Shown here piece after piece: positions 1 through 7,321 of a DNA stretch of 7,321 nt; within the stretch, counting starts at the first letter, position 1; every line of letters starts with the position of its first letter. The translations under genes and the position numbers were made by a program. The DNA is from a virus (lineage: Duplodnaviria > Heunggongvirae > Uroviricota > Caudoviricetes), in IMG/VR virus record IMGVR_UViG_2541047691_000019, positions 1 through 7,321 of that record. One strand, 5' to 3'. The notes beneath the pieces are model-generated. The model had not been told where the DNA came from, searched no databases, and saw nothing but the letters and a program-made list of their open reading frames with translations.

Positions 1-2346
1 ATTAAAACGGAACTGCTGGAAACGCAGACCGTGGACTTCAGCGTGGGTGCCGAAGGGCTTCGCCATGTACCGGGCGATGTCATTGAAATCTGCGATGATG
101 ACTATGCCGGTATCAGCACCGGCGGGCGCGTGCTGGCGGTAAACAGCCAGACCCGGACGCTGACGCTCGACCGTGAAATCACGCTGCCATCCTCCGGCAC
201 CACGCTGATAAGCCTGGTTGACGGGCAGGGTAATCCGGTGAGCGTGGAGGTCCAGTCCGTCACCGACGGTGTGAAGGTGAAAGTGAGCCGTGTTCCTGAC
301 GGCGTTGCCGGATACAGCGTGTGGGGGCTGAAGCTGCCGACGCTGCGCCAGCGCCTGTTCCGCTGTGTGAGTATCCGTGAGAATGACGACGGTACGTATG
401 CCATCACCGCCGTACAGCATGTACCGGCAAAAGAGGCCATCGTGGATAACGGGGCGCACTTTGACGGCGACCAGAGCGGCACGGTGAATGGTGTCACGCC
501 GCCAGCGGTGCAGCACCTGACCGCCGAAGTTACCGCAGACAGCGGGGAATATCAGGTGCTGGCGCGCTGGGACACGCCGAAGGTGGTGAAGGGCGTGAGC
601 TTTATGCTTCGCCTGACCGTGGCAGCGGATGACGGCAGTGAGCGGCTGGTCAGCACGGCCCGGACGACGGAAACCACATACCGCTTCACGCAACTGGCGC
701 TGGGGCGGTACACGCTGACAGTCCGGGCAGTAAATGCGTGGGGGCAGCAGGGCGATCCGGCATCGGTATCGTTCCGGATTGCCGCACCGGCAGCGCCGTC
801 TCGGATTGAGCTGACGCCGGGGTATTTTCAGATAACGGCGGTCCCGCGTCTTGCGGTGTATGACCCGACGGTACAGTTTGAATTCTGGTTCTCAGAAAAA
901 CGCATCACGAACACAGCACAGGTGGAAAAATCTGCCCGTTATCTGGGGACCGGCAGTCAGTGGACTGTCCAGGGGAGCCGGATTAAGCCGGGGACGGATT
1001 TCTGGTTTTACGTGCGCAGCGTCAACCTGGTGGGGAAATCTGCTTTTGTGGAAGCCAGCGGGCAGCCCAGCAATGATGGTGAAGGGTATCTGGAAATTTT
1101 CCGGGGGCTGATAGATGAGACGCTTCTGGGTCAGGCACTGAAAGAGCGCATTGATGCTTCAGCGCTGCGTACGGAGGTCACGCAACTGGAAGAAGATATC
1201 CGTCAGCGGATGGACACGGATATCGCAGAAGTGACCCGGAAAATCGGGAAGGCGGAAAACAGCCTCACGCAGCTGGTTGCGAAAAAGAATGAGGACCAGA
1301 CACTGGCCATCGCGCAGGTGAGCCAGAAAGTGGACCGGGTGAGCAGTGAAATCTCACAGACTGTCAGCCAGGGGCAGTCAGAAAACGCCCGACAGATAGC
1401 ACAGGTCCGCCAGTACGTGGATAAAAAAGGGAGTGAAATTACCTCGACCACGGATAAAAAGCTGGGTGACCAGGCCGTGACCATACAGCAAATCCAGCGG
1501 GTTCAGTCAGACACGCGCAATGAGCTGAATGCCATGTATATGCTGAAGGTGCAGAAAACAAAAAACGGTATTCCCTATGTGGCCGGGATTGGCGCGGGGA
1601 TTGAGGATGTTGATGATCAGACCCTGAGTAACATTCTGCTGCAGGCCGATCGCATTGCGATGATTACCCCGGAGAACGGCAACACCACGCCGCTGTTTGT
1701 GGCGCAGGGGAATCAGCTGTTCATGAACGACGTGTTCCTGAAGCGACTGTTTGCGGTGAGCATCACGTCATCCGGCAATCCTCCGACGTTTTCCCTGACG
1801 CCGGATGGCAGGCTGACAGCCCGCAATGCGGATATCAGTGGAGCCATCACGGCGAATACCGGCACGCTCAATAATGTCACCATTAACGAGAACTGTGTCA
1901 TCAGAGGGAAACTGTCTGCAAACCAGATTGAAGGCGATCTCGTTAAAACAGTGGGTAAGGCTTTCCCCCGTGACTCCCGTGCACCGAAGCGTTGGCCATC
2001 AGGAACCATTACCGTCAGGGTTTATGACGATCAGCCGTTTAACCGGCAGATTGTTATTCCGGCGGTGGCTTTCAGCGGTGCCAGACATGAGCGGGAGAAC
2101 AGCGATACTTATTCGTCATGCCGCCTGATAGTGAAGAAAAACGGTGCTGAAATTTATAACCGTACCGCGCTGGATAATACGCTGGTTTACAGTGGTGTTA
2201 TTGATATGCCTGCTGGTCGCGGTCACATGACGCTGGAGTTTTCTGTATCAGCATGGTGGGTAAATGGCTGGTATCCCACAGCAAGTATCAGCGATTTGCT
2301 GGTTGTTGTGATGAAGAAAGCCACTGCAGGCATCACGATTAGCTGA
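1..2346 (+). CDS. J: Host specificity / tail tip protein J, C-terminal ~780 codons (5'-truncated by window edge)
   Basis: Frame is open from base 1 (ATT AAA ACG GAA ...) with no upstream stop, so the gene starts before the window; the ORF track's start at 31 is only the first in-frame GTG. Product has fibronectin-III-like repeats, a long coiled-coil segment ([34 protein letters not shown]...) and a C-terminal domain, and sits directly before lom as in lambda. TGA stop at 2344-2346. Confidence 0.9.
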
Positions 2347-2364
2347 ATTTTATAACCCCAATAC

Positions 2365-2391
2365 GGGCGCCAGAAATGGTGCCTTTTTTAT
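2365..2391 (+). terminator. Candidate intrinsic terminator between J and lom
   Basis: GGCGCC (2366-2371), loop AGAAAT, GGTGCC (2378-2383) gives a 6-bp stem with one G.U pair, followed by TTTTTTATT (2384-2392). Weak stem; tentative. Confidence 0.3.
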
Positions 2392-2413
2392 TGCAGAAAA
2401 GCGAGAGGTAATT

Positions 2414-3013
2414 ATGCGTAAAGTTTGTGCAGTCATTTTGTCCGCAGCCATCTGTCTGTCCGTATCCGGTGCGCCTGCATGGGCGTCTGAACATCAGTCC
2501 ACACTGAGCGCGGGGTATCTTCATGCCCGTACGAACGCTCCCGGCAGCGATAATCTGAACGGGATTAACGTGAAATACCGTTATGAGTTTACGGACGCGC
2601 TGGGGCTGATTACGTCCTTCAGTTATGCCAATGCTGAAGATGAGAAAAAAACGCACTACAGCGATACCCGCTGGCATGAGGATTCTGTGCGTAACCGCTG
2701 GTTCAGCGTGATGGCGGGGCCATCTGTGCGCGTGAATGAATGGTTCAGCGTGTATGTGATCGCTGGTGTGACTTACAGCCGTGTGTCGACTTTTTCCGGG
2801 GATTATCTCCGTGTAACTGACAGCAAGGGGAAAACGCACGATGTGCTGACCGGAAGTGATGACGATCGCCACAGCAACACGTCTCTGGCGTGGGGAGCTG
2901 GCGTGCAGTTTAACCCGACCGAATCCGTGGCCATTGACCTTGCTTATGAAGGTTCCGGCAGTGGTGACTGGCGCACTGACGGTTTCATCGTGGGTGTCGG
3001 TTATAAATTCTGA
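2414..3013 (+). CDS. lom: Lom outer-membrane protein (Ail/Lom/PagC family 8-strand beta-barrel)
   Basis: 199 aa; N-terminal signal peptide MRKVCAVILSAAICLSVSGAPAWA; near-identical over most of its length to lambda Lom as I recall it (…SEHQSTLSAGYLHARTNAPGSDNLNGINVKYRYEF…DWRTDGFIVGVGYKF). RBS GAGAGG at 2403-2408, ATG at 2414. Position J-lom-stf matches lambda. Confidence 0.92.
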   Translation: MRKVCAVILSAAICLSVSGAPAWASEHQSTLSAGYLHARTNAPGSDNLNGINVKYRYEFTDALGLITSFSYANAEDEKKTHYSDTRWHEDSVRNRWFSVMAGPSVRVNEWFSVYVIAGVTYSRVSTFSGDYLRVTDSKGKTHDVLTGSDDDRHSNTSLAWGAGVQFNPTESVAIDLAYEGSGSGDWRTDGFIVGVGYKF

Positions 3014-3039
3014 TTAGCCAGGTAACACAGTGTTATGAC

Positions 3040-3066
3040 AGCCCGCCGGTTCAGGCGGGCTTTTTT
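3040..3066 (+). terminator. Rho-independent terminator downstream of lom
   Basis: AGCCCGCC (3040-3047), loop GGTTCA, GGCGGGCT (3054-3061): a GC-rich 8-bp stem followed by TTTTTT (3061-3066). Confidence 0.7.
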
Positions 3067-3077
3067 GTGGAGTGGAT

Positions 3078-5144
3078 ATGGCAGCAGTAAAAATCTCAGG
3101 TGTGCTGAAAGATGGTGCGGGAAAACCAATACAGAACTGCACTATTCAGTTGAAGGCAAAGCGTAACAGCACCACGGTACTGGTGAACACGGTGGCCTCT
3201 GAAAATCCGGATGAAGCCGGGCGTTACAGCATGGATGTTGAGTATGGCCAGTACAGCGTCATCCTGCTGGTTGAAGGTTTTCCGCCTTCACATGCCGGGA
3301 CCATTACCGTCTATGAAGGTTCCAGACCAGGTACGCTGAATGATTTTCTCGGTGCCATGACGGAGGATGATGTTCGTCCGGAGGCACTGCGCCGTTTTGA
3401 GCTGATGGTGAATGAAGTGGCACGTCATGCCGGAGCGTCATCACAGAGTGCAGCGGCGGCAAAGAAATCCGAAACGGCAGCAGCCTCATCGAAGAATGCG
3501 GCGAAAACCTCAGAAACGAATGCAGCTAACAGCGCACAGGCGGCAGCGGCCTCGCAGACTGCATCGGCAAACTCCGCGACAGCAGCCAAAAAATCAGAAA
3601 CCAACGCGAAAAATAGCGAGACAGCCACAAAGGCCAGCGAAAAAAACGCAAAATCCAGCCAGACGGCAGCGAAAACCAGTGAGACGAATGCCAAAGACAG
3701 TGAAGCCAACGCAAAGGTGAGCGAAACAGCGGCGGCGAACTCGGCGAAAGCATCGGCAGCAAGCCAGACGGCAGCAAAAGCAAGTGAAGATGCTGCCAGA
3801 GAATACGCAAACCAGACAGCAGAGCCGTACAGATATGTTTTACAGCCGCTGCCGGATGTGTGGATACCCTTTAATGATTCGCTGGATATGATTACGGGCT
3901 ATTCTCCGGGTTATAAAAAAGTGAAGATTGGTGATAATGTGGTTCAGGTTGCCAGTGATAAACAGGTTAATTTCAGTCGCGCATCAACGGCAACATATAT
4001 CAACAAATCTGGCGAACTGAAAACGGCGGAAATTAATGAGCCACGATTTGAGTGTGATGGCCTGCTTATTGAGGGGCAAAGAACGAACTTCTTCCCGAAC
4101 AGTACAGACCCTTCGAAGTGGAATAAGTCAACTTCACTGGACGTTACAGAAACAGGCACAGATAGTTTCGGGTTTAATTATGGCCGGTTTGTCGTACAGG
4201 ATTCGATTGTTGGTACAAGTAAAGCGCATACCATTATCGGACTGTATTCGAGTACCGGAGGGGTTGATACTTCAGGGGACGAAAAGTATGTAACTATATC
4301 CTGTCGGGTAAAAAGTGAAGTTGATAATATCGCCGTTCGTATTTTATTTGAACATTATGATGGGGAGGTAAGGACATCAATAGGAGCAGCAAGCCTGAAC
4401 CTTACCACCCGCATAATTAGCAAGACAGGTCAGACAAGCCGTGTTACAGCAAGGTCTGTTAAGGATGATGCAACTGGCTGGATATTTTTTGAGGCTACAT
4501 TAAAAGCAGATACAACAGAAAATACGGTTGGCGGTTTTGTCCAGTATTCTCCGGATACAGGGCAGATGGTTGCATCAGGGGATTATCTCGATGTAACCAC
4601 TCCACAGATTGAGGCTGGTACAGGCGCATCATCTTTTATTGTTACGGGGACGGCACCGGTAACGCGGGCAAGCGATATGGTTACAGTTCCGATTAAGAAT
4701 AATCTTTATAATCTTCCTTTTACGGTTCTTTGTGAGGTACATAAGAACTGGTATAAAACGCCAAATGCAGCGCCGCGTGTTTTTGACACATACCGGCATC
4801 AGGCAGATGCGGGGATCGTAATGGGGTTTGGTTCATCAGGTGGGTACGACGGTTTTCCGTATTGTGATATTGGTGGTTCAAACCGACGAATAAATGAAAA
4901 TGCCGGGCTGAAAAAAATGCTTATTGGTATGCGGGTAAAGTCCGAACGGTCCACATGTGTAGTCAGTAACGGTAAGTTAAGCAGCGAAACTAAAACCAAA
5001 TGGGAATATATCCGGAGTACAGCAACCATTCGCATTGGTGGACAAACTACAGCAGGATTACGCCATTTATTTGGGCATGTGAGGAATTTTCGTCTCTGGC
5101 ATAAAGAGCTAACAGATGCGCAGCTTGGGGAGGTTGTGGAGTGA
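3078..5144 (+). CDS. stf: Side tail fibre protein Stf (lambda Stf-like N-terminus, repeat stalk, divergent distal domain)
   Basis: ATG at 3078 is preferred over the in-frame GTG at 3072 because MAAVKISGVLKDGAGKPIQNCTIQLKAKRNS matches the lambda Stf N-terminus and GGAG lies 5 nt upstream. 688 aa; central Ala/Ser/Thr/Lys repeats (KxSETNAK); conserved block AREYANQTAEPYRYVLQPLPDVWIPFNDSLDMITG…; C-terminus …LRHLFGHVRNFRLWHKELTDAQLGEVVE typical of enterobacterial prophage side tail fibres. TGA at 5142-5144. Confidence 0.88.
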   Translation: MAAVKISGVLKDGAGKPIQNCTIQLKAKRNSTTVLVNTVASENPDEAGRYSMDVEYGQYSVILLVEGFPPSHAGTITVYEGSRPGTLNDFLGAMTEDDVRPEALRRFELMVNEVARHAGASSQSAAAAKKSETAAASSKNAAKTSETNAANSAQAAAASQTASANSATAAKKSETNAKNSETATKASEKNAKSSQTAAKTSETNAKDSEANAKVSETAAANSAKASAASQTAAKASEDAAREYANQTAEPYRYVLQPLPDVWIPFNDSLDMITGYSPGYKKVKIGDNVVQVASDKQVNFSRASTATYINKSGELKTAEINEPRFECDGLLIEGQRTNFFPNSTDPSKWNKSTSLDVTETGTDSFGFNYGRFVVQDSIVGTSKAHTIIGLYSSTGGVDTSGDEKYVTISCRVKSEVDNIAVRILFEHYDGEVRTSIGAASLNLTTRIISKTGQTSRVTARSVKDDATGWIFFEATLKADTTENTVGGFVQYSPDTGQMVASGDYLDVTTPQIEAGTGASSFIVTGTAPVTRASDMVTVPIKNNLYNLPFTVLCEVHKNWYKTPNAAPRVFDTYRHQADAGIVMGFGSSGGYDGFPYCDIGGSNRRINENAGLKKMLIGMRVKSERSTCVVSNGKLSSETKTKWEYIRSTATIRIGGQTTAGLRHLFGHVRNFRLWHKELTDAQLGEVVE
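3438..3813 (+). repeat. Imperfect in-frame tandem repeats encoding the Stf low-complexity stalk
   Basis: Recurrent DNA units such as AAA(A/T)C(A/C)AG(T/C)GA(A/G)AC(G/C)AA(T/C)GC(G/A)AAA encode repeated (A/T)AK(T/K/N)SETNAK motifs. This tract produces spurious highly basic or hydrophobic ORFs in other frames (3412-3720 +, 3425-3709 -, 3526-3810 -). Confidence 0.6.
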
Positions 5145-5419
5145 GAGATTTCACGTTGCGTTTCAGTGATAAAGCAGATTTCAGGGCATTTCTCAGGAAA
5201 CTTAACTGGGAAGAGGACGAAGAGCTGCAGAATGCCGTTCTGGTTGATGAGATTGGTTTTACGTTCAGGGAGACAGATGTTCCTGATGACGGAGAACCAG
5301 AATACACGCGAAACGAAGGGTACTTTGTTAATATCCGTCTTCTTGACGATGGATTTGATGATTCCGTGTTCCGTGAGTGGGTGGTTACACCAGAGCGCCC
5401 GCTCAGGGAGTGGTTTTAA
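5141..5419 (+). CDS. Hypothetical acidic 92-aa protein, translationally coupled to stf (possible cognate fibre chaperone/accessory protein)
   Basis: GTG start at 5141 overlaps the stf stop (GTGA); strong SD GGGGAGG at 5127-5133, 7 nt upstream. Product MRDFTLRFSDKADFRAFLRKLNWEEDEELQ… is acidic with protein-like composition. I do not recognise it as lambda Tfa. Confidence 0.5.
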   Translation: MRDFTLRFSDKADFRAFLRKLNWEEDEELQNAVLVDEIGFTFRETDVPDDGEPEYTRNEGYFVNIRLLDDGFDDSVFREWVVTPERPLREWF

Positions 5420-5428
5420 GGATAGCAG

Positions 5429-5650
5429 ATGGATATCACGTCGATACTTCATGCGCTTTGTGCCGTAGCGGTGCAGGTACTGGCTGGTCTTTTTACCGGA
5501 AACTGGGCTTACGGGGCGATAGCCGGTTGTACGTTCTTCATTGCGCGTGAACACACCCAGGCAGAATATCGCTGGATTGAAATGTTCGGGCATGGCAAGC
5601 GTATGAATATGCCGTGGTGGGGCGTGCCTGCGAATCTGGCTGTTGGTTAA
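5429..5650 (+). CDS. Hypothetical 73-aa small hydrophobic (membrane?) protein
   Basis: ATG at 5429 with SD AAGGA at 5417-5421, 7 nt upstream. Two hydrophobic segments (ITSILHALCAVAVQVLAGLF; WAYGAIAGCTFFIA) then a Trp-rich polar tail. TAA at 5648-5650. No family recognised. Confidence 0.4.
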   Translation: MDITSILHALCAVAVQVLAGLFTGNWAYGAIAGCTFFIAREHTQAEYRWIEMFGHGKRMNMPWWGVPANLAVG

Positions 5651-5669
5651 TCGTGGGTGAAAAAGGTGA

Positions 5670-5798
5670 GCAGTATATGCAACGAAGGAGGAAACATCAT
5701 TGCTGGCGGCATGGAAGGCATGCAGGGTGTTGCTGAACCGTGTTGATACATCAACTGCACCTGATATTGAGTGGCCGGAAGAACCAGACACAATGTAA
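5670..5798 (+). pseudogene. tfa: Tail fibre assembly protein Tfa, C-terminal remnant (about 42 codons; N-terminal ~150 codons absent)
   Basis: Frame 0 after the TGA at 5667-5669 encodes [42 protein letters not shown], matching the conserved C-terminus of lambda Tfa as I recall it (…[32 protein letters not shown]…). No ATG start and no N-terminal domain. Confidence 0.65.
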
Positions 5799-5801
5799 GC
5801 G

Positions 5802-5847
5802 AAAAAGAAAAACCGCAGACACGACGTATGCAGGACGTGCTGCGGTT
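5802..5847 (-). terminator. Rho-independent terminator for the leftward int-dinI transcript
   Basis: On the + strand, AACCGCAG (5811-5818) pairs with CTGCGGTT (5840-5847), with an extended imperfect stem (ACACG/ACGTG). The A-run AAAAAGAAAAA at 5802-5812 reads as U-rich 3' of the hairpin on the - strand. About 65 nt downstream of the dinI-like stop. Confidence 0.55.
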
Positions 5848-5913
5848 GGCTGGTGAACTTTCGATAGTGCGGGTATTGAATGATTTCCAGCCGTTACCGA
5901 TTTTACGTGTTTA

Positions 5914-6162
5914 TTAGTGAACAAACCACTCGTCAGCAGACTCCCAGGTATCTTTCAGAGTCTCCTGAACAAATGTTTTTGCAGAATCCTTATCTGCTGT
6001 GCGTGTAACAGAAAGCCCATCATTGCTGGTGGCTTTTACGATCACTTCTACATCGTCATAACGCTTACTGATGCGCCGAGTTAATTCTTCCTTTAACGCA
6101 TCCACAGCACCGTTTGGCATTTTAGTCATTTTCTCTTTGGCTATGCAGATTTCAATACGCAT
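5914..6162 (-). CDS. dinI: DinI family protein (DNA-damage-inducible protein I homologue; modulator of RecA coprotease activity)
   Basis: 82 aa, [35 protein letters not shown]…[15 protein letters not shown], matching E. coli DinI in length and in the MRIE…GA(I/V)DAL…(E)TWESAD(D/E)WFV motifs. RBS GAGGGA upstream; LexA-box promoter immediately upstream. Confidence 0.88.
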
Positions 6163-6175
6163 AAAAATCCCTCTA

Positions 6176-6195
6176 TACTGTGTTTGTATACAGTG
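6176..6195 (-). promoter_or_regulatory. LexA operator (SOS box) 1, proximal to the dinI-like start
   Basis: TACTGTGTTTGTATACAGTG: perfect CTGT-N8-ACAG (6178-6193) with an AT-rich spacer, against consensus TACTGTATATATATACAGTA. Lies between the putative -10 and the RBS. Confidence 0.75.
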
Positions 6196-6197
6196 TT

Positions 6198-6227
6198 ATT
6201 TTTATCTGTATAAATAAACAGTGTCAA
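6198..6227 (-). promoter_or_regulatory. Sigma-70 promoter for the dinI-like gene
   Basis: On the - strand: TTGACA (complement of 6222-6227, a perfect -35 that overlaps the int stop codon at 6224-6226), a 17-18 bp spacer, then TAAAAAT (complement of 6198-6204) as the -10. Start codon is about 35 nt downstream. Confidence 0.6.
6204..6223 (-). promoter_or_regulatory. LexA operator (SOS box) 2, within the promoter spacer
   Basis: ATCTGTATAAATAAACAGTG: perfect CTGT-N8-ACAG at 6206-6221. Sits between the -35 and -10 elements of the dinI-like promoter. Confidence 0.7.
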
Positions 6228-7321
6228 GAGGTCTTGTTTCTGCTCTTTTGGAGTTCTTCAAAACGATTATGTAAAGATTTCGGATACAGTTCGGTATATA
6301 CCTGCCATAGCACGTTTAATGAACGATGCCCTGTAACTTGAGCGACTTCCTCAATACTAAAACCAGCCTCAAATAAGCGACTTGCCCCTTCTCTACGCAA
6401 ATCATGGTATCGCAGATCTTTAATACCTAATTTGCTTCTTACCCTCTGAAATCCTGCGGTAACAGAAGTGCTGTTATATGGAAAAATGAATTCTGATTTT
6501 TTGGGTTGGCGCTGGACGATATCCCAGGCTTCCCCAAGCAAGGCAACTTTCATATGGTTACCTTCCTTTTTACGTGGATCTTTCCTATCTCTTACTAGTA
6601 TAGATTTTTGTTCTTGGTCGAGATCTTCCCATCGTAACCGGCATACTTCTCCGATTCGCATACAGGACCACACAGAAAATTTGAGGATATCAACGAACGG
6701 AATTTTTGAGCATTTATGAGTAGATCGTTGTTGAAGGCCTTCAATGAGCATGTCCAGTTCATCAGATGCTGGTCTACGATTACGACGGTTTGATTTACCA
6801 ATCAAACCGAGTTTAAGTAGATATGGACGAGCGCTTTTCGCCGGGTTTGATGTGTAATTGATTCCGTATACAGGTTTTGCCGCATCCAGAACACTGCCAA
6901 GATAACTAACATCGTGGCTGACTGTTGCTGGGCCTGCACCAGCGTTGTTTCTTAGCCTGCAATGTTCAATTACGTCATTTTCTGTCAGTTCAGATAGTTT
7001 GATCGCGGATATGTCACTATCCATAAGCAGTTCCAGCACATATCTTTTAGTACGGCCTGCTTTACCTCCGGCATTTGGGTCATTTAAATATTTGTGTAGT
7101 AAGTCACGGACTGTAAGTCCATCAACAGCATTTGATGATGGAATGCCATATAGATCTAATTCCATCACTTTCTGTGCGCCCCATGTTTTGGCATGAGCAT
7201 GTTTAGGGAATGTTTTGCTTTCCCTGTAAGTGATAACACCTTTTTCTTTGATAATCACATTACAGCGATAGCGTGGTGTGCCATCGGATTTTAGTCGTTT
7301 CTCTATGTTATAGTACGCCAT
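6224..7321 (-). CDS. int: Phage integrase, tyrosine site-specific recombinase
   Basis: 365 aa. C-terminal catalytic-domain motifs: Arg in …CMRIGEVCRLRWEDLD…, HDLRREGASRLF (H-x-x-R) and a Tyr near the C-terminus (…GHRSLNVLWQVYTELY). Start codon is the final 3 bases of the window (complement of 7319-7321), so an upstream extension cannot be excluded. AT-rich relative to J and lom. Confidence 0.88.
   Translation of the reverse strand: MAYYNIEKRLKSDGTPRYRCNVIIKEKGVITYRESKTFPKHAHAKTWGAQKVMELDLYGIPSSNAVDGLTVRDLLHKYLNDPNAGGKAGRTKRYVLELLMDSDISAIKLSELTENDVIEHCRLRNNAGAGPATVSHDVSYLGSVLDAAKPVYGINYTSNPAKSARPYLLKLGLIGKSNRRNRRPASDELDMLIEGLQQRSTHKCSKIPFVDILKFSVWSCMRIGEVCRLRWEDLDQEQKSILVRDRKDPRKKEGNHMKVALLGEAWDIVQRQPKKSEFIFPYNSTSVTAGFQRVRSKLGIKDLRYHDLRREGASRLFEAGFSIEEVAQVTGHRSLNVLWQVYTELYPKSLHNRFEELQKSRNKTS

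Follow-up and report, generated by a model that had tools for sequence, protein, structure and literature searches.

The DNA analysed here (the window) is a stretch of 7,321 nucleotides (nt) from a virus of the Caudoviricetes (IMG/VR virus record IMGVR_UViG_2541047691_000019, positions 1 to 7,321), in which the side tail fibre gene stf is followed by the gene of an acidic protein of 92 amino acids (aa), a second small open reading frame (ORF) and a remnant of tfa. The cassette comprises the following features.

3078–5144, plus strand: stf, encoding the side tail fibre protein Stf (688 aa from ATG 3078, or 690 aa from GTG 3072).
5141–5419, plus strand: gene of the 92-aa acidic protein (WP_001204581, phrog_1361), placed so that its translation could be coupled to that of stf via the GTGA overlap.
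5429–5650, plus strand: hydrophobic ORF of 73 aa, a pseudogene of a 97-aa protein with two transmembrane domains (phrog_1443).
5612–5624, plus strand: junction of a 62-bp deletion, located by DNA alignments with intact relatives.
5679–5798, plus strand: tfa remnant, the last approximately 39 codons of a lambda-type Tfa and its stop codon, lacking a start codon.

The RefSeq start for stf is the ATG at 3078 (688 aa). The N-terminus of Stf was identified as a lambda-type attachment domain (Pfam PF08400 phage_tail_N, E 3.2e-67, 225 bits versus a cutoff of 26.6), followed at approximately aa 120–250 by a coiled-coil region rich in Ala, Ser, Thr, Lys and Glu. Distal to this shaft, aa 332–533 (nt 4065–4670) matched the NCBIfam model NF048003 GTA_spike_fiber with 70.5 bits (cutoff 36), and aa 301–548 matched the head spike fibre of the gene transfer agent RcGTA (PDB 6tb9, E 5e-5). 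The C-terminal domain of approximately 170 aa (about aa 516–690, nt 4617–5141), which ends in ..GHVRNFRLWHKELTDAQ.., is probably a ConA/LamG-like lectin domain. With Pfam PF13385 Laminin_G_3 the window copy remained below threshold (14.6 bits, E 0.037, cutoff 27.6); 31 of 34 diverse aligned copies of the domain matched this model, the best with E 6.7e-12, and a profile built from the 34 copies matched the lectin domain of pneumococcal NanA (PDB 4c1w, E 0.0016). A Pfam scan found no Peptidase_S74 (PF13884) intramolecular chaperone in Stf of the window. An AlphaFold2 (AF2) model of the head (aa 255–690) was discarded because of its low confidence (pLDDT, the score of the predicted local distance difference test, of 33); the homologues available were only 99%-identical ones, making the prediction effectively a single-sequence one. 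The length of the coiled-coil repeat (window 3430–3830) differs among relatives, and Stf of the prophage in Escherichia coli GPEC102 has about 100 more residues of these repeats (790 versus 688 aa).

The stop codon of stf at 5144 and the GTG start of the 92-aa ORF at 5141 form a GTGA overlap, and GGAGG is located 7 nt upstream of this GTG. The initial annotation of the window had described exactly this arrangement, a four-nucleotide stop/start overlap with a Shine–Dalgarno motif in front of an acidic ORF, and the deduced protein is indeed acidic (pI 4.26; 24 Asp and Glu versus 12 Lys and Arg). Residues 1–92 matched profile positions 1–92 of PHROG 1361, i.e. the full length, with E 6.8e-41. Lambda Tfa gave nothing significant with either the 92-aa or the 73-aa protein in blastp and tblastn, the Tfa family model Caudo_TAP matched neither at E ≤ 1, and NCBIfam and PADLOC yielded no match for the two. 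As no Pfam, NCBIfam or structural relative of the 92-aa protein was found in these searches, its assignment outside any Tfa or chaperone family stands. A phmmer search of 1.8 billion representatives retrieved 53 clusters, nearly all of them stand-alone proteins of 85–116 aa. The same search gave matches to giant PKD-repeat proteins with E down to 2e-15. When checked with the profile of the 92-aa family, the repeats of P0143 scored between −3 and 9 bits each and P0158, P0160, P0163 and P0174 did not match; because of these weak profile scores, and because the AF2 fold of the 92-aa protein is alpha/beta and not immunoglobulin-like, the apparent homology was taken as an artefact of summed short motifs. 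A weak PDB match of the family profile to Tetrahymena p19 (E 0.02) was judged to be due to chance. In the AF2 model, the conserved C-terminal P.R.W tail has a lower pLDDT than the remainder.

Between the window and phage 21 the 92-aa gene has kept its length, with proportions of nonsynonymous and synonymous differences (pN and pS) of 0.23 and 0.88, respectively, the latter being saturated; thus, it is a selected coding gene. The literature contained no paper naming the protein accessions and no published function for the 92-aa family, and the genome announcement of phage 21 says nothing on the small genes downstream of stf. In the virion proteome of phage SIA3lw (PMC12752171), the flanking fibre proteins ORF42 and ORF44 were detected; that analysis covered only gel bands of at least 19 kDa and was therefore blind to a 10-kDa protein.

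The association of the small gene with this type of fibre was followed across phages in both directions. In 163 of 164 loci retrieved via the small protein, its start overlaps the stop of an upstream fibre protein by 1 or 4 nt, and the upstream proteins end in the lectin-domain tail ..RN[FL]R.W..; the sole exception has no upstream DNA. Conversely, all 79 testable loci retrieved via the lectin tail, which are close E. coli relatives, carry the small gene immediately 3′ of the fibre gene. The pair also occurs in the T5-like phages IrisVonRoten (gp22/gp23) and fp01, in cyanophage S-WAM2 (Kyanoviridae) and in Aeromonas phage 14AhydR10PP; the record of the latter includes an annotated tail sheath. 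NF048003 was found in all seven upstream proteins tested from other lineages, with 51–138 bits. In the record of phage fp01 (stretch 4051–5954), two ORFs that overlap each other are annotated, one for the shaft (229 aa) and one for the GTA-spike/LamG head (418 aa). Either the record contains a frameshift or the head is genuinely a protein of its own; in cyanophage S-WAM2 the head is a stand-alone protein of 423 aa.

The initial annotation had proposed the 92-aa protein as a candidate fibre-specific accessory, and this genomic behaviour fits. It bears at the same time on a different reading, in which the gene has no structural function and is carried along with the fibre cassette as a passenger, for example as a moron for anti-defence, exclusion or regulation. 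The product is small and acidic, has no known fold relative, and its gene lies in a moron-rich region, with lom upstream and, in phage 21, sitABCD downstream. Because the overlap of the two genes does not vary between unrelated phage types, virulent ones among them, we regard a passenger as very unlikely; in addition, the same head architecture is paired with the small protein in these types, among them the virulent T5-like phages, no promoter of its own was detected, and PADLOC gave no match.

In most loci a second fibre protein of 230–590 aa is encoded 9–11 nt 3′ of the small gene. These distal fibres have a conserved N-terminus specific for the respective phage group and carry an intramolecular chaperone (Peptidase_S74) of their own. 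Among members of one phage group, the small protein averages 90–92% identity. The upstream fibre reaches only 30–53% over its last 300 residues, with the exception of the final approximately 25 (85–87%), and conservation of the downstream fibre is confined to its first approximately 25 residues. By these alignments, the small protein, together with the proximal fibre's end before it and the distal fibre's beginning after it, forms a block that looks like a joint between variable parts. The final head motif of approximately 25 residues is in part a generic LamG end motif that is also present in pneumococcal NanA.

The T5-like phage IrisVonRoten (Bas32) offers the best-described case. For its proximal fibre Gp22 a "galectin-like" C-terminal domain has been described, and the T-shaped distal fibre Gp24 has been modelled as attached to Gp22; the small Gp23 was given no role in the same study, the BASEL paper (bioRxiv 10.1101/2024.09.12.612763). 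In our comparison, Gp22 has the same head as Stf of the window (NF048003, 56.9 bits) and the same ..RNFRIWHKELTD.. tail, and Gp23 is a member of the 92-aa family whose gene overlaps that of Gp22 by 4 nt. The two systems differ in the N-terminal anchor, which is of T5 type in IrisVonRoten and of lambda type in the window, and in the distal fibre gene, which of the two only IrisVonRoten has. RcGTA Rcc01080 (PDB 6tb9) is homologous to the Stf head, but it forms a spike at the capsid vertex of a gene transfer agent and is no tail fibre. LtfA/LtfB of phage DT57C was rejected as an equivalent; it represents a different fibre type, since LtfA ends in Peptidase_S74.

From this organization, the 92-aa protein could be mainly a joint or adaptor that docks an interchangeable distal fibre on the proximal one in a branched or two-part lateral fibre. 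The distal fibre would then have been lost in the window and in phage 21, where the small protein would only cap the head or be on its way out. The second fibre gene found in most loci, the conserved block with variable surroundings, and the position of the Gp23 gene between those of Gp22 and the attached distal Gp24 in IrisVonRoten (bioRxiv 10.1101/2024.09.12.612763) all speak for such a joint, and the lower pLDDT of the conserved P.R.W tail is what a docking peptide might show. However, the distal fibre gene is absent from the window, phage 21 and the Aeromonas phage, and all three have kept the 92-aa gene next to the fibre gene, intact and with the pN and pS values given above in the lineages of the window and phage 21. 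Furthermore, the distal Gp10 of phage AnnaHegner joins the proximal Gp9 with no gene between them, as far as can be deduced from the numbering in the BASEL paper only. We therefore consider docking of a distal fibre rather unlikely as the main role. As the gene is kept in the modules of the window and phage 21 type and in the Aeromonas phage, all of which have no distal fibre, the proposed partner role of the protein would be independent of a distal fibre.

The fate of tfa was clarified by a six-frame tblastn search of the whole window with lambda Tfa (194 aa). Only residues 156–191 were recovered, at 5679–5786 (86% identity, E 2e-15), and no further significant similarity to Tfa was obtained in any frame of the window, all other matches having E ≥ 1.7. 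In agreement, Pfam PF02413 Caudo_TAP covered the remnant with profile positions 95–130 of 131 only (E 1e-14), and blastn gave 88% DNA identity to the 3′ end of lambda tfa. The initial annotation had inferred a C-terminal stub with no start codon, which this search bears out. It had also named the circumstance that would overturn its view, namely that the two small ORFs are frameshifted pieces of an intact tfa arising from a sequencing error or recent decay. Beyond their position, nothing speaks for this: a weak match of the 73-aa protein to Tfa residues 23–41 (E 0.023 in a single comparison) includes residues that follow the frameshift described below. The six-frame search refuted such an origin, both ORFs belong to families of their own, and the identical sequence occurs in independent complete genomes, which leaves it a virtually negligible chance.

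DNA homology to lambda covers lom and the 5′ third of stf (2886–3469) and resumes only at the 3′ end of tfa (5678–5776). In the 164 related loci, all Tfa matches 3′ of the module start at Tfa residue 127 or later, and a full-length tfa was found in none of them; the intact tfa for which the initial annotation had suggested searching related prophages is thus missing from this position. The sequence past the stop codon of the 97-aa gene, including the start of the tfa remnant, is common to all five relatives aligned. Given these borders, the region is fairly described as the product of a cassette exchange whose crossovers fell within stf and the conserved 3′ end of tfa. As the junction between the 97-aa gene and the tfa stub is shared by every relative compared, the swap would be old; judged from the same alignments, it took place before these phages diverged and is not peculiar to the window. 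The initial idea of a module swap through recombination within stf and the 3′ end of tfa is consequently retained, with lambda homology ending at 3469 and resuming at 5678; its local character is not, as the event is old and is found in phage 21 and relatives.

Relative to lambda, this exchange would have replaced almost the whole of tfa together with the distal two-thirds of stf, through crossovers in the 5′ third of stf and in the conserved 3′ end of tfa. The incoming fibre would end in a globular head composed of the GTA-head-spike-fibre domain and the ConA/LamG-like lectin domain, unlike the Tfa-dependent tip of lambda Stf, and the tfa stub would be a non-coding scar. In a direct comparison with lambda Stf/Tfa (orf-401/orf-314/orf-194), the N-terminal attachment domain is the same, with 75% identity over aa 5–161 (orf-401), and stf and tfa of lambda overlap as do stf and the 92-aa gene of the window. 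The systems diverge beyond this point, since in the window the GTA-spike-fibre and lectin head replaces the tip and the downstream protein has 92 instead of 194 aa and no similarity to Caudo_TAP.

The 73-aa ORF, which starts 9 nt after the stop of the 92-aa gene, was compared by protein and DNA alignment with phages 21, Lambda_2E9, ev243 and PhiR49_2 and with the E. coli GPEC102 prophage. It proved not to be a complete gene: it matches phrog_1443 at positions 1–65 of 97 only. Codons 1–65 are those of a conserved protein of 97 aa; the 8 codons after them are frameshifted and stand in place of the last 32 residues. As a result, the second hydrophobic segment is lost; the intact protein is annotated with two transmembrane domains in phage 21. 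In intact relatives, the 62 bp that the window lacks have a short direct repeat on either side (GTGGTGGGGCG and GGTGGTGGCG), and this slippage-type deletion has inactivated the membrane-protein gene. Of 5426 complete E. coli genomes, at least 264 contain the deletion junction in a single unbroken match. Thus, it is an inherited allele and not an assembly or sequencing error, which also settles the suspicion that the frameshift came from sequencing. Just past the junction, at 5625–5639, 4 of 15 positions differ from intact relatives (TGCCTGCGAATCTGG versus TGTCTGCTGGTCTGG), more than in the flanks; this excess agrees with a relaxation of selection once the frame had shifted, or with descent from another parental allele.

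Intact copies of the 97-aa gene are under purifying selection (ratio of nonsynonymous to synonymous substitution rates, dN/dS, of 0.14–0.20). The gene also occurs apart from the stf/92-aa pair: it lies behind the tailspike gene of the P22-like phage Gally and overlaps a P2-like tfa in Halomonas phage phiHAP-1. By this distribution it is a separate, independently mobile membrane-protein gene. Of the two small ORFs that had been regarded as coupled to stf, only the 92-aa ORF is therefore tied to it. The product would be a small inner-membrane protein of the moron-like kind that is often parked behind receptor-binding genes, a role suggested by its position. Examples of small genes in such positions are Z/fun of P2, cor of phi80 and N15, and llp of T5. 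The 97-aa gene resembles these in that it ends the fibre or tailspike modules of lambdoid, P22-like and P2-like phages. The likeness to known exclusion or conversion genes is one of position only and is offered as an analogy; no promoter was detected for the membrane gene itself, and it is not known to have an exclusion phenotype.

The closest well-known relative of the whole arrangement is phage 21 (OL657228), in which CPT_21_22 (side tail fiber), CPT_21_23 (hypothetical protein) and CPT_21_24 (putative membrane protein) have the same gene order and overlaps as in the window. Stf is 60% identical over the full length, with values of 64% for the 92-aa protein and 89% for the membrane protein, and the two sequences are alike for approximately 70 nt past the stop of the membrane gene. 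They differ in their decay: phage 21 has an intact 97-aa gene followed by sitABCD, which removes most of the tfa stub, whereas the window carries the 62-bp deletion and has kept the stub. The insertion of sitABCD in phage 21 cuts the tfa remnant after approximately 70 nt. This metal-uptake operon lies on the opposite strand right after the 97-aa gene in both phage 21 and Lambda_2E9-type phages (4370–7819 of both stretches). The order stf/92-aa/97-aa with its overlaps is also present in Lambda_2E9 and the ev series, in ev243 and in the ECOR-derived PhiR phages (PhiR49_2), all of them viable phages. The designation of the ORFs as novel was thus not upheld; the cassette is the same in phage 21 and in many induced or isolated coliphages, and the partial genes are already marked in RefSeq. 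As a whole, the locus represents a fibre cassette that is known and widespread; it is an unremarkable example and partly decayed.

Taken together, these data make it probable that the window contains a Tfa-less cassette of the phage 21 type, in which the 92-aa protein is a dedicated partner of the lectin-type head, accompanied by a mobile, broken membrane gene and a tfa scar. The 92-aa gene would have arrived as part of the incoming cassette and would be on the same late transcript as stf, and the GTGA overlap suggests translational coupling of the two. The anatomy, homologies, synteny, purifying selection and deletion are read directly from the DNA; the binding of the 92-aa protein to the head, and any role of the membrane protein, are what we infer from them. 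Its product might act as a folding or assembly factor for the lectin-type head, or might stay on the head as a small subunit or adaptor. Most likely, the protein serves the GTA-spike/lectin head as its dedicated partner, with its gene placed where lambda has tfa.

Several considerations weigh against this assignment. A monomeric lectin-type domain has no obvious need for a chaperone. The small protein is highly conserved (90–92%) while the head is variable (30–53%); a general adaptor explains this no less well than would a chaperone adapted to its head. As the tail motif is partly generic for LamG domains, its conservation alone marks no binding site. Furthermore, simple linkage in closely related loci would give the same synteny, the distant cases are few and come from four lineages, and the support for head binding derives from sequence and synteny.

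The remainder of the window was assigned by an ORF map and family scans and places the cassette close to the right end of a prophage.

31–2346: C-terminal part of the tail-tip protein J.
2414–3013: lom.
5914–6162, strand opposite to stf: dinI-like gene.
6224–7321, strand opposite to stf: tyrosine integrase gene.

The right end of a dusA-adjacent prophage in E. coli ST95-32 is 99.9% identical to the window. There, RefSeq labels the 92-aa ORF as hypothetical protein WP_001204581, the second ORF as "incomplete, missing C-terminus" and the tfa piece as "incomplete, missing N-terminus". The prophage is closed by the dinI-like gene and the tyrosine integrase gene (window 5914–7321), and in ST95-32 the integrase gene directly adjoins dusA (stretch 7015–9548); the prophage looks like a dusA-integrating one. 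Neither a sigma-70-like promoter nor a canonical terminator was detected around the small ORFs. Just past the tfa stop, an imperfect hairpin at 5811–5847 (−20 kcal/mol, z −2.4 versus shuffled sequences) is not followed by a U-run and hence does not represent a canonical intrinsic terminator. The segment 3′ of the tfa stub (5810–5900) recurs at approximately 90% identity in many E. coli genomes, mostly under no annotated feature, in one record beside pinE and in another on a K-12 plasmid.

The window itself is a common prophage end with two decayed genes that are already annotated as such in RefSeq. Its wider interest lies in the 10-kDa protein, which in the loci examined accompanies one fibre-head architecture without exception, in siphoviruses and myoviruses of enterobacteria, Aeromonas and cyanobacteria. 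For the engineering of lambda- or T5-based particles with this fibre class it matters whether the small gene must be carried along, and the collected loci make this question testable. As a tentative extension, the 92-aa family (phrog_1361 and relatives) may be an unrecognised, widespread accessory subunit that binds the GTA-spike/LamG head and forms a conserved socket for interchangeable distal fibres. If this holds, the family would represent a third solution to fibre assembly or branching, beside Tfa-type and intramolecular chaperones, and would provide a handle for host-range swapping in lambdoid and T5-like phages.

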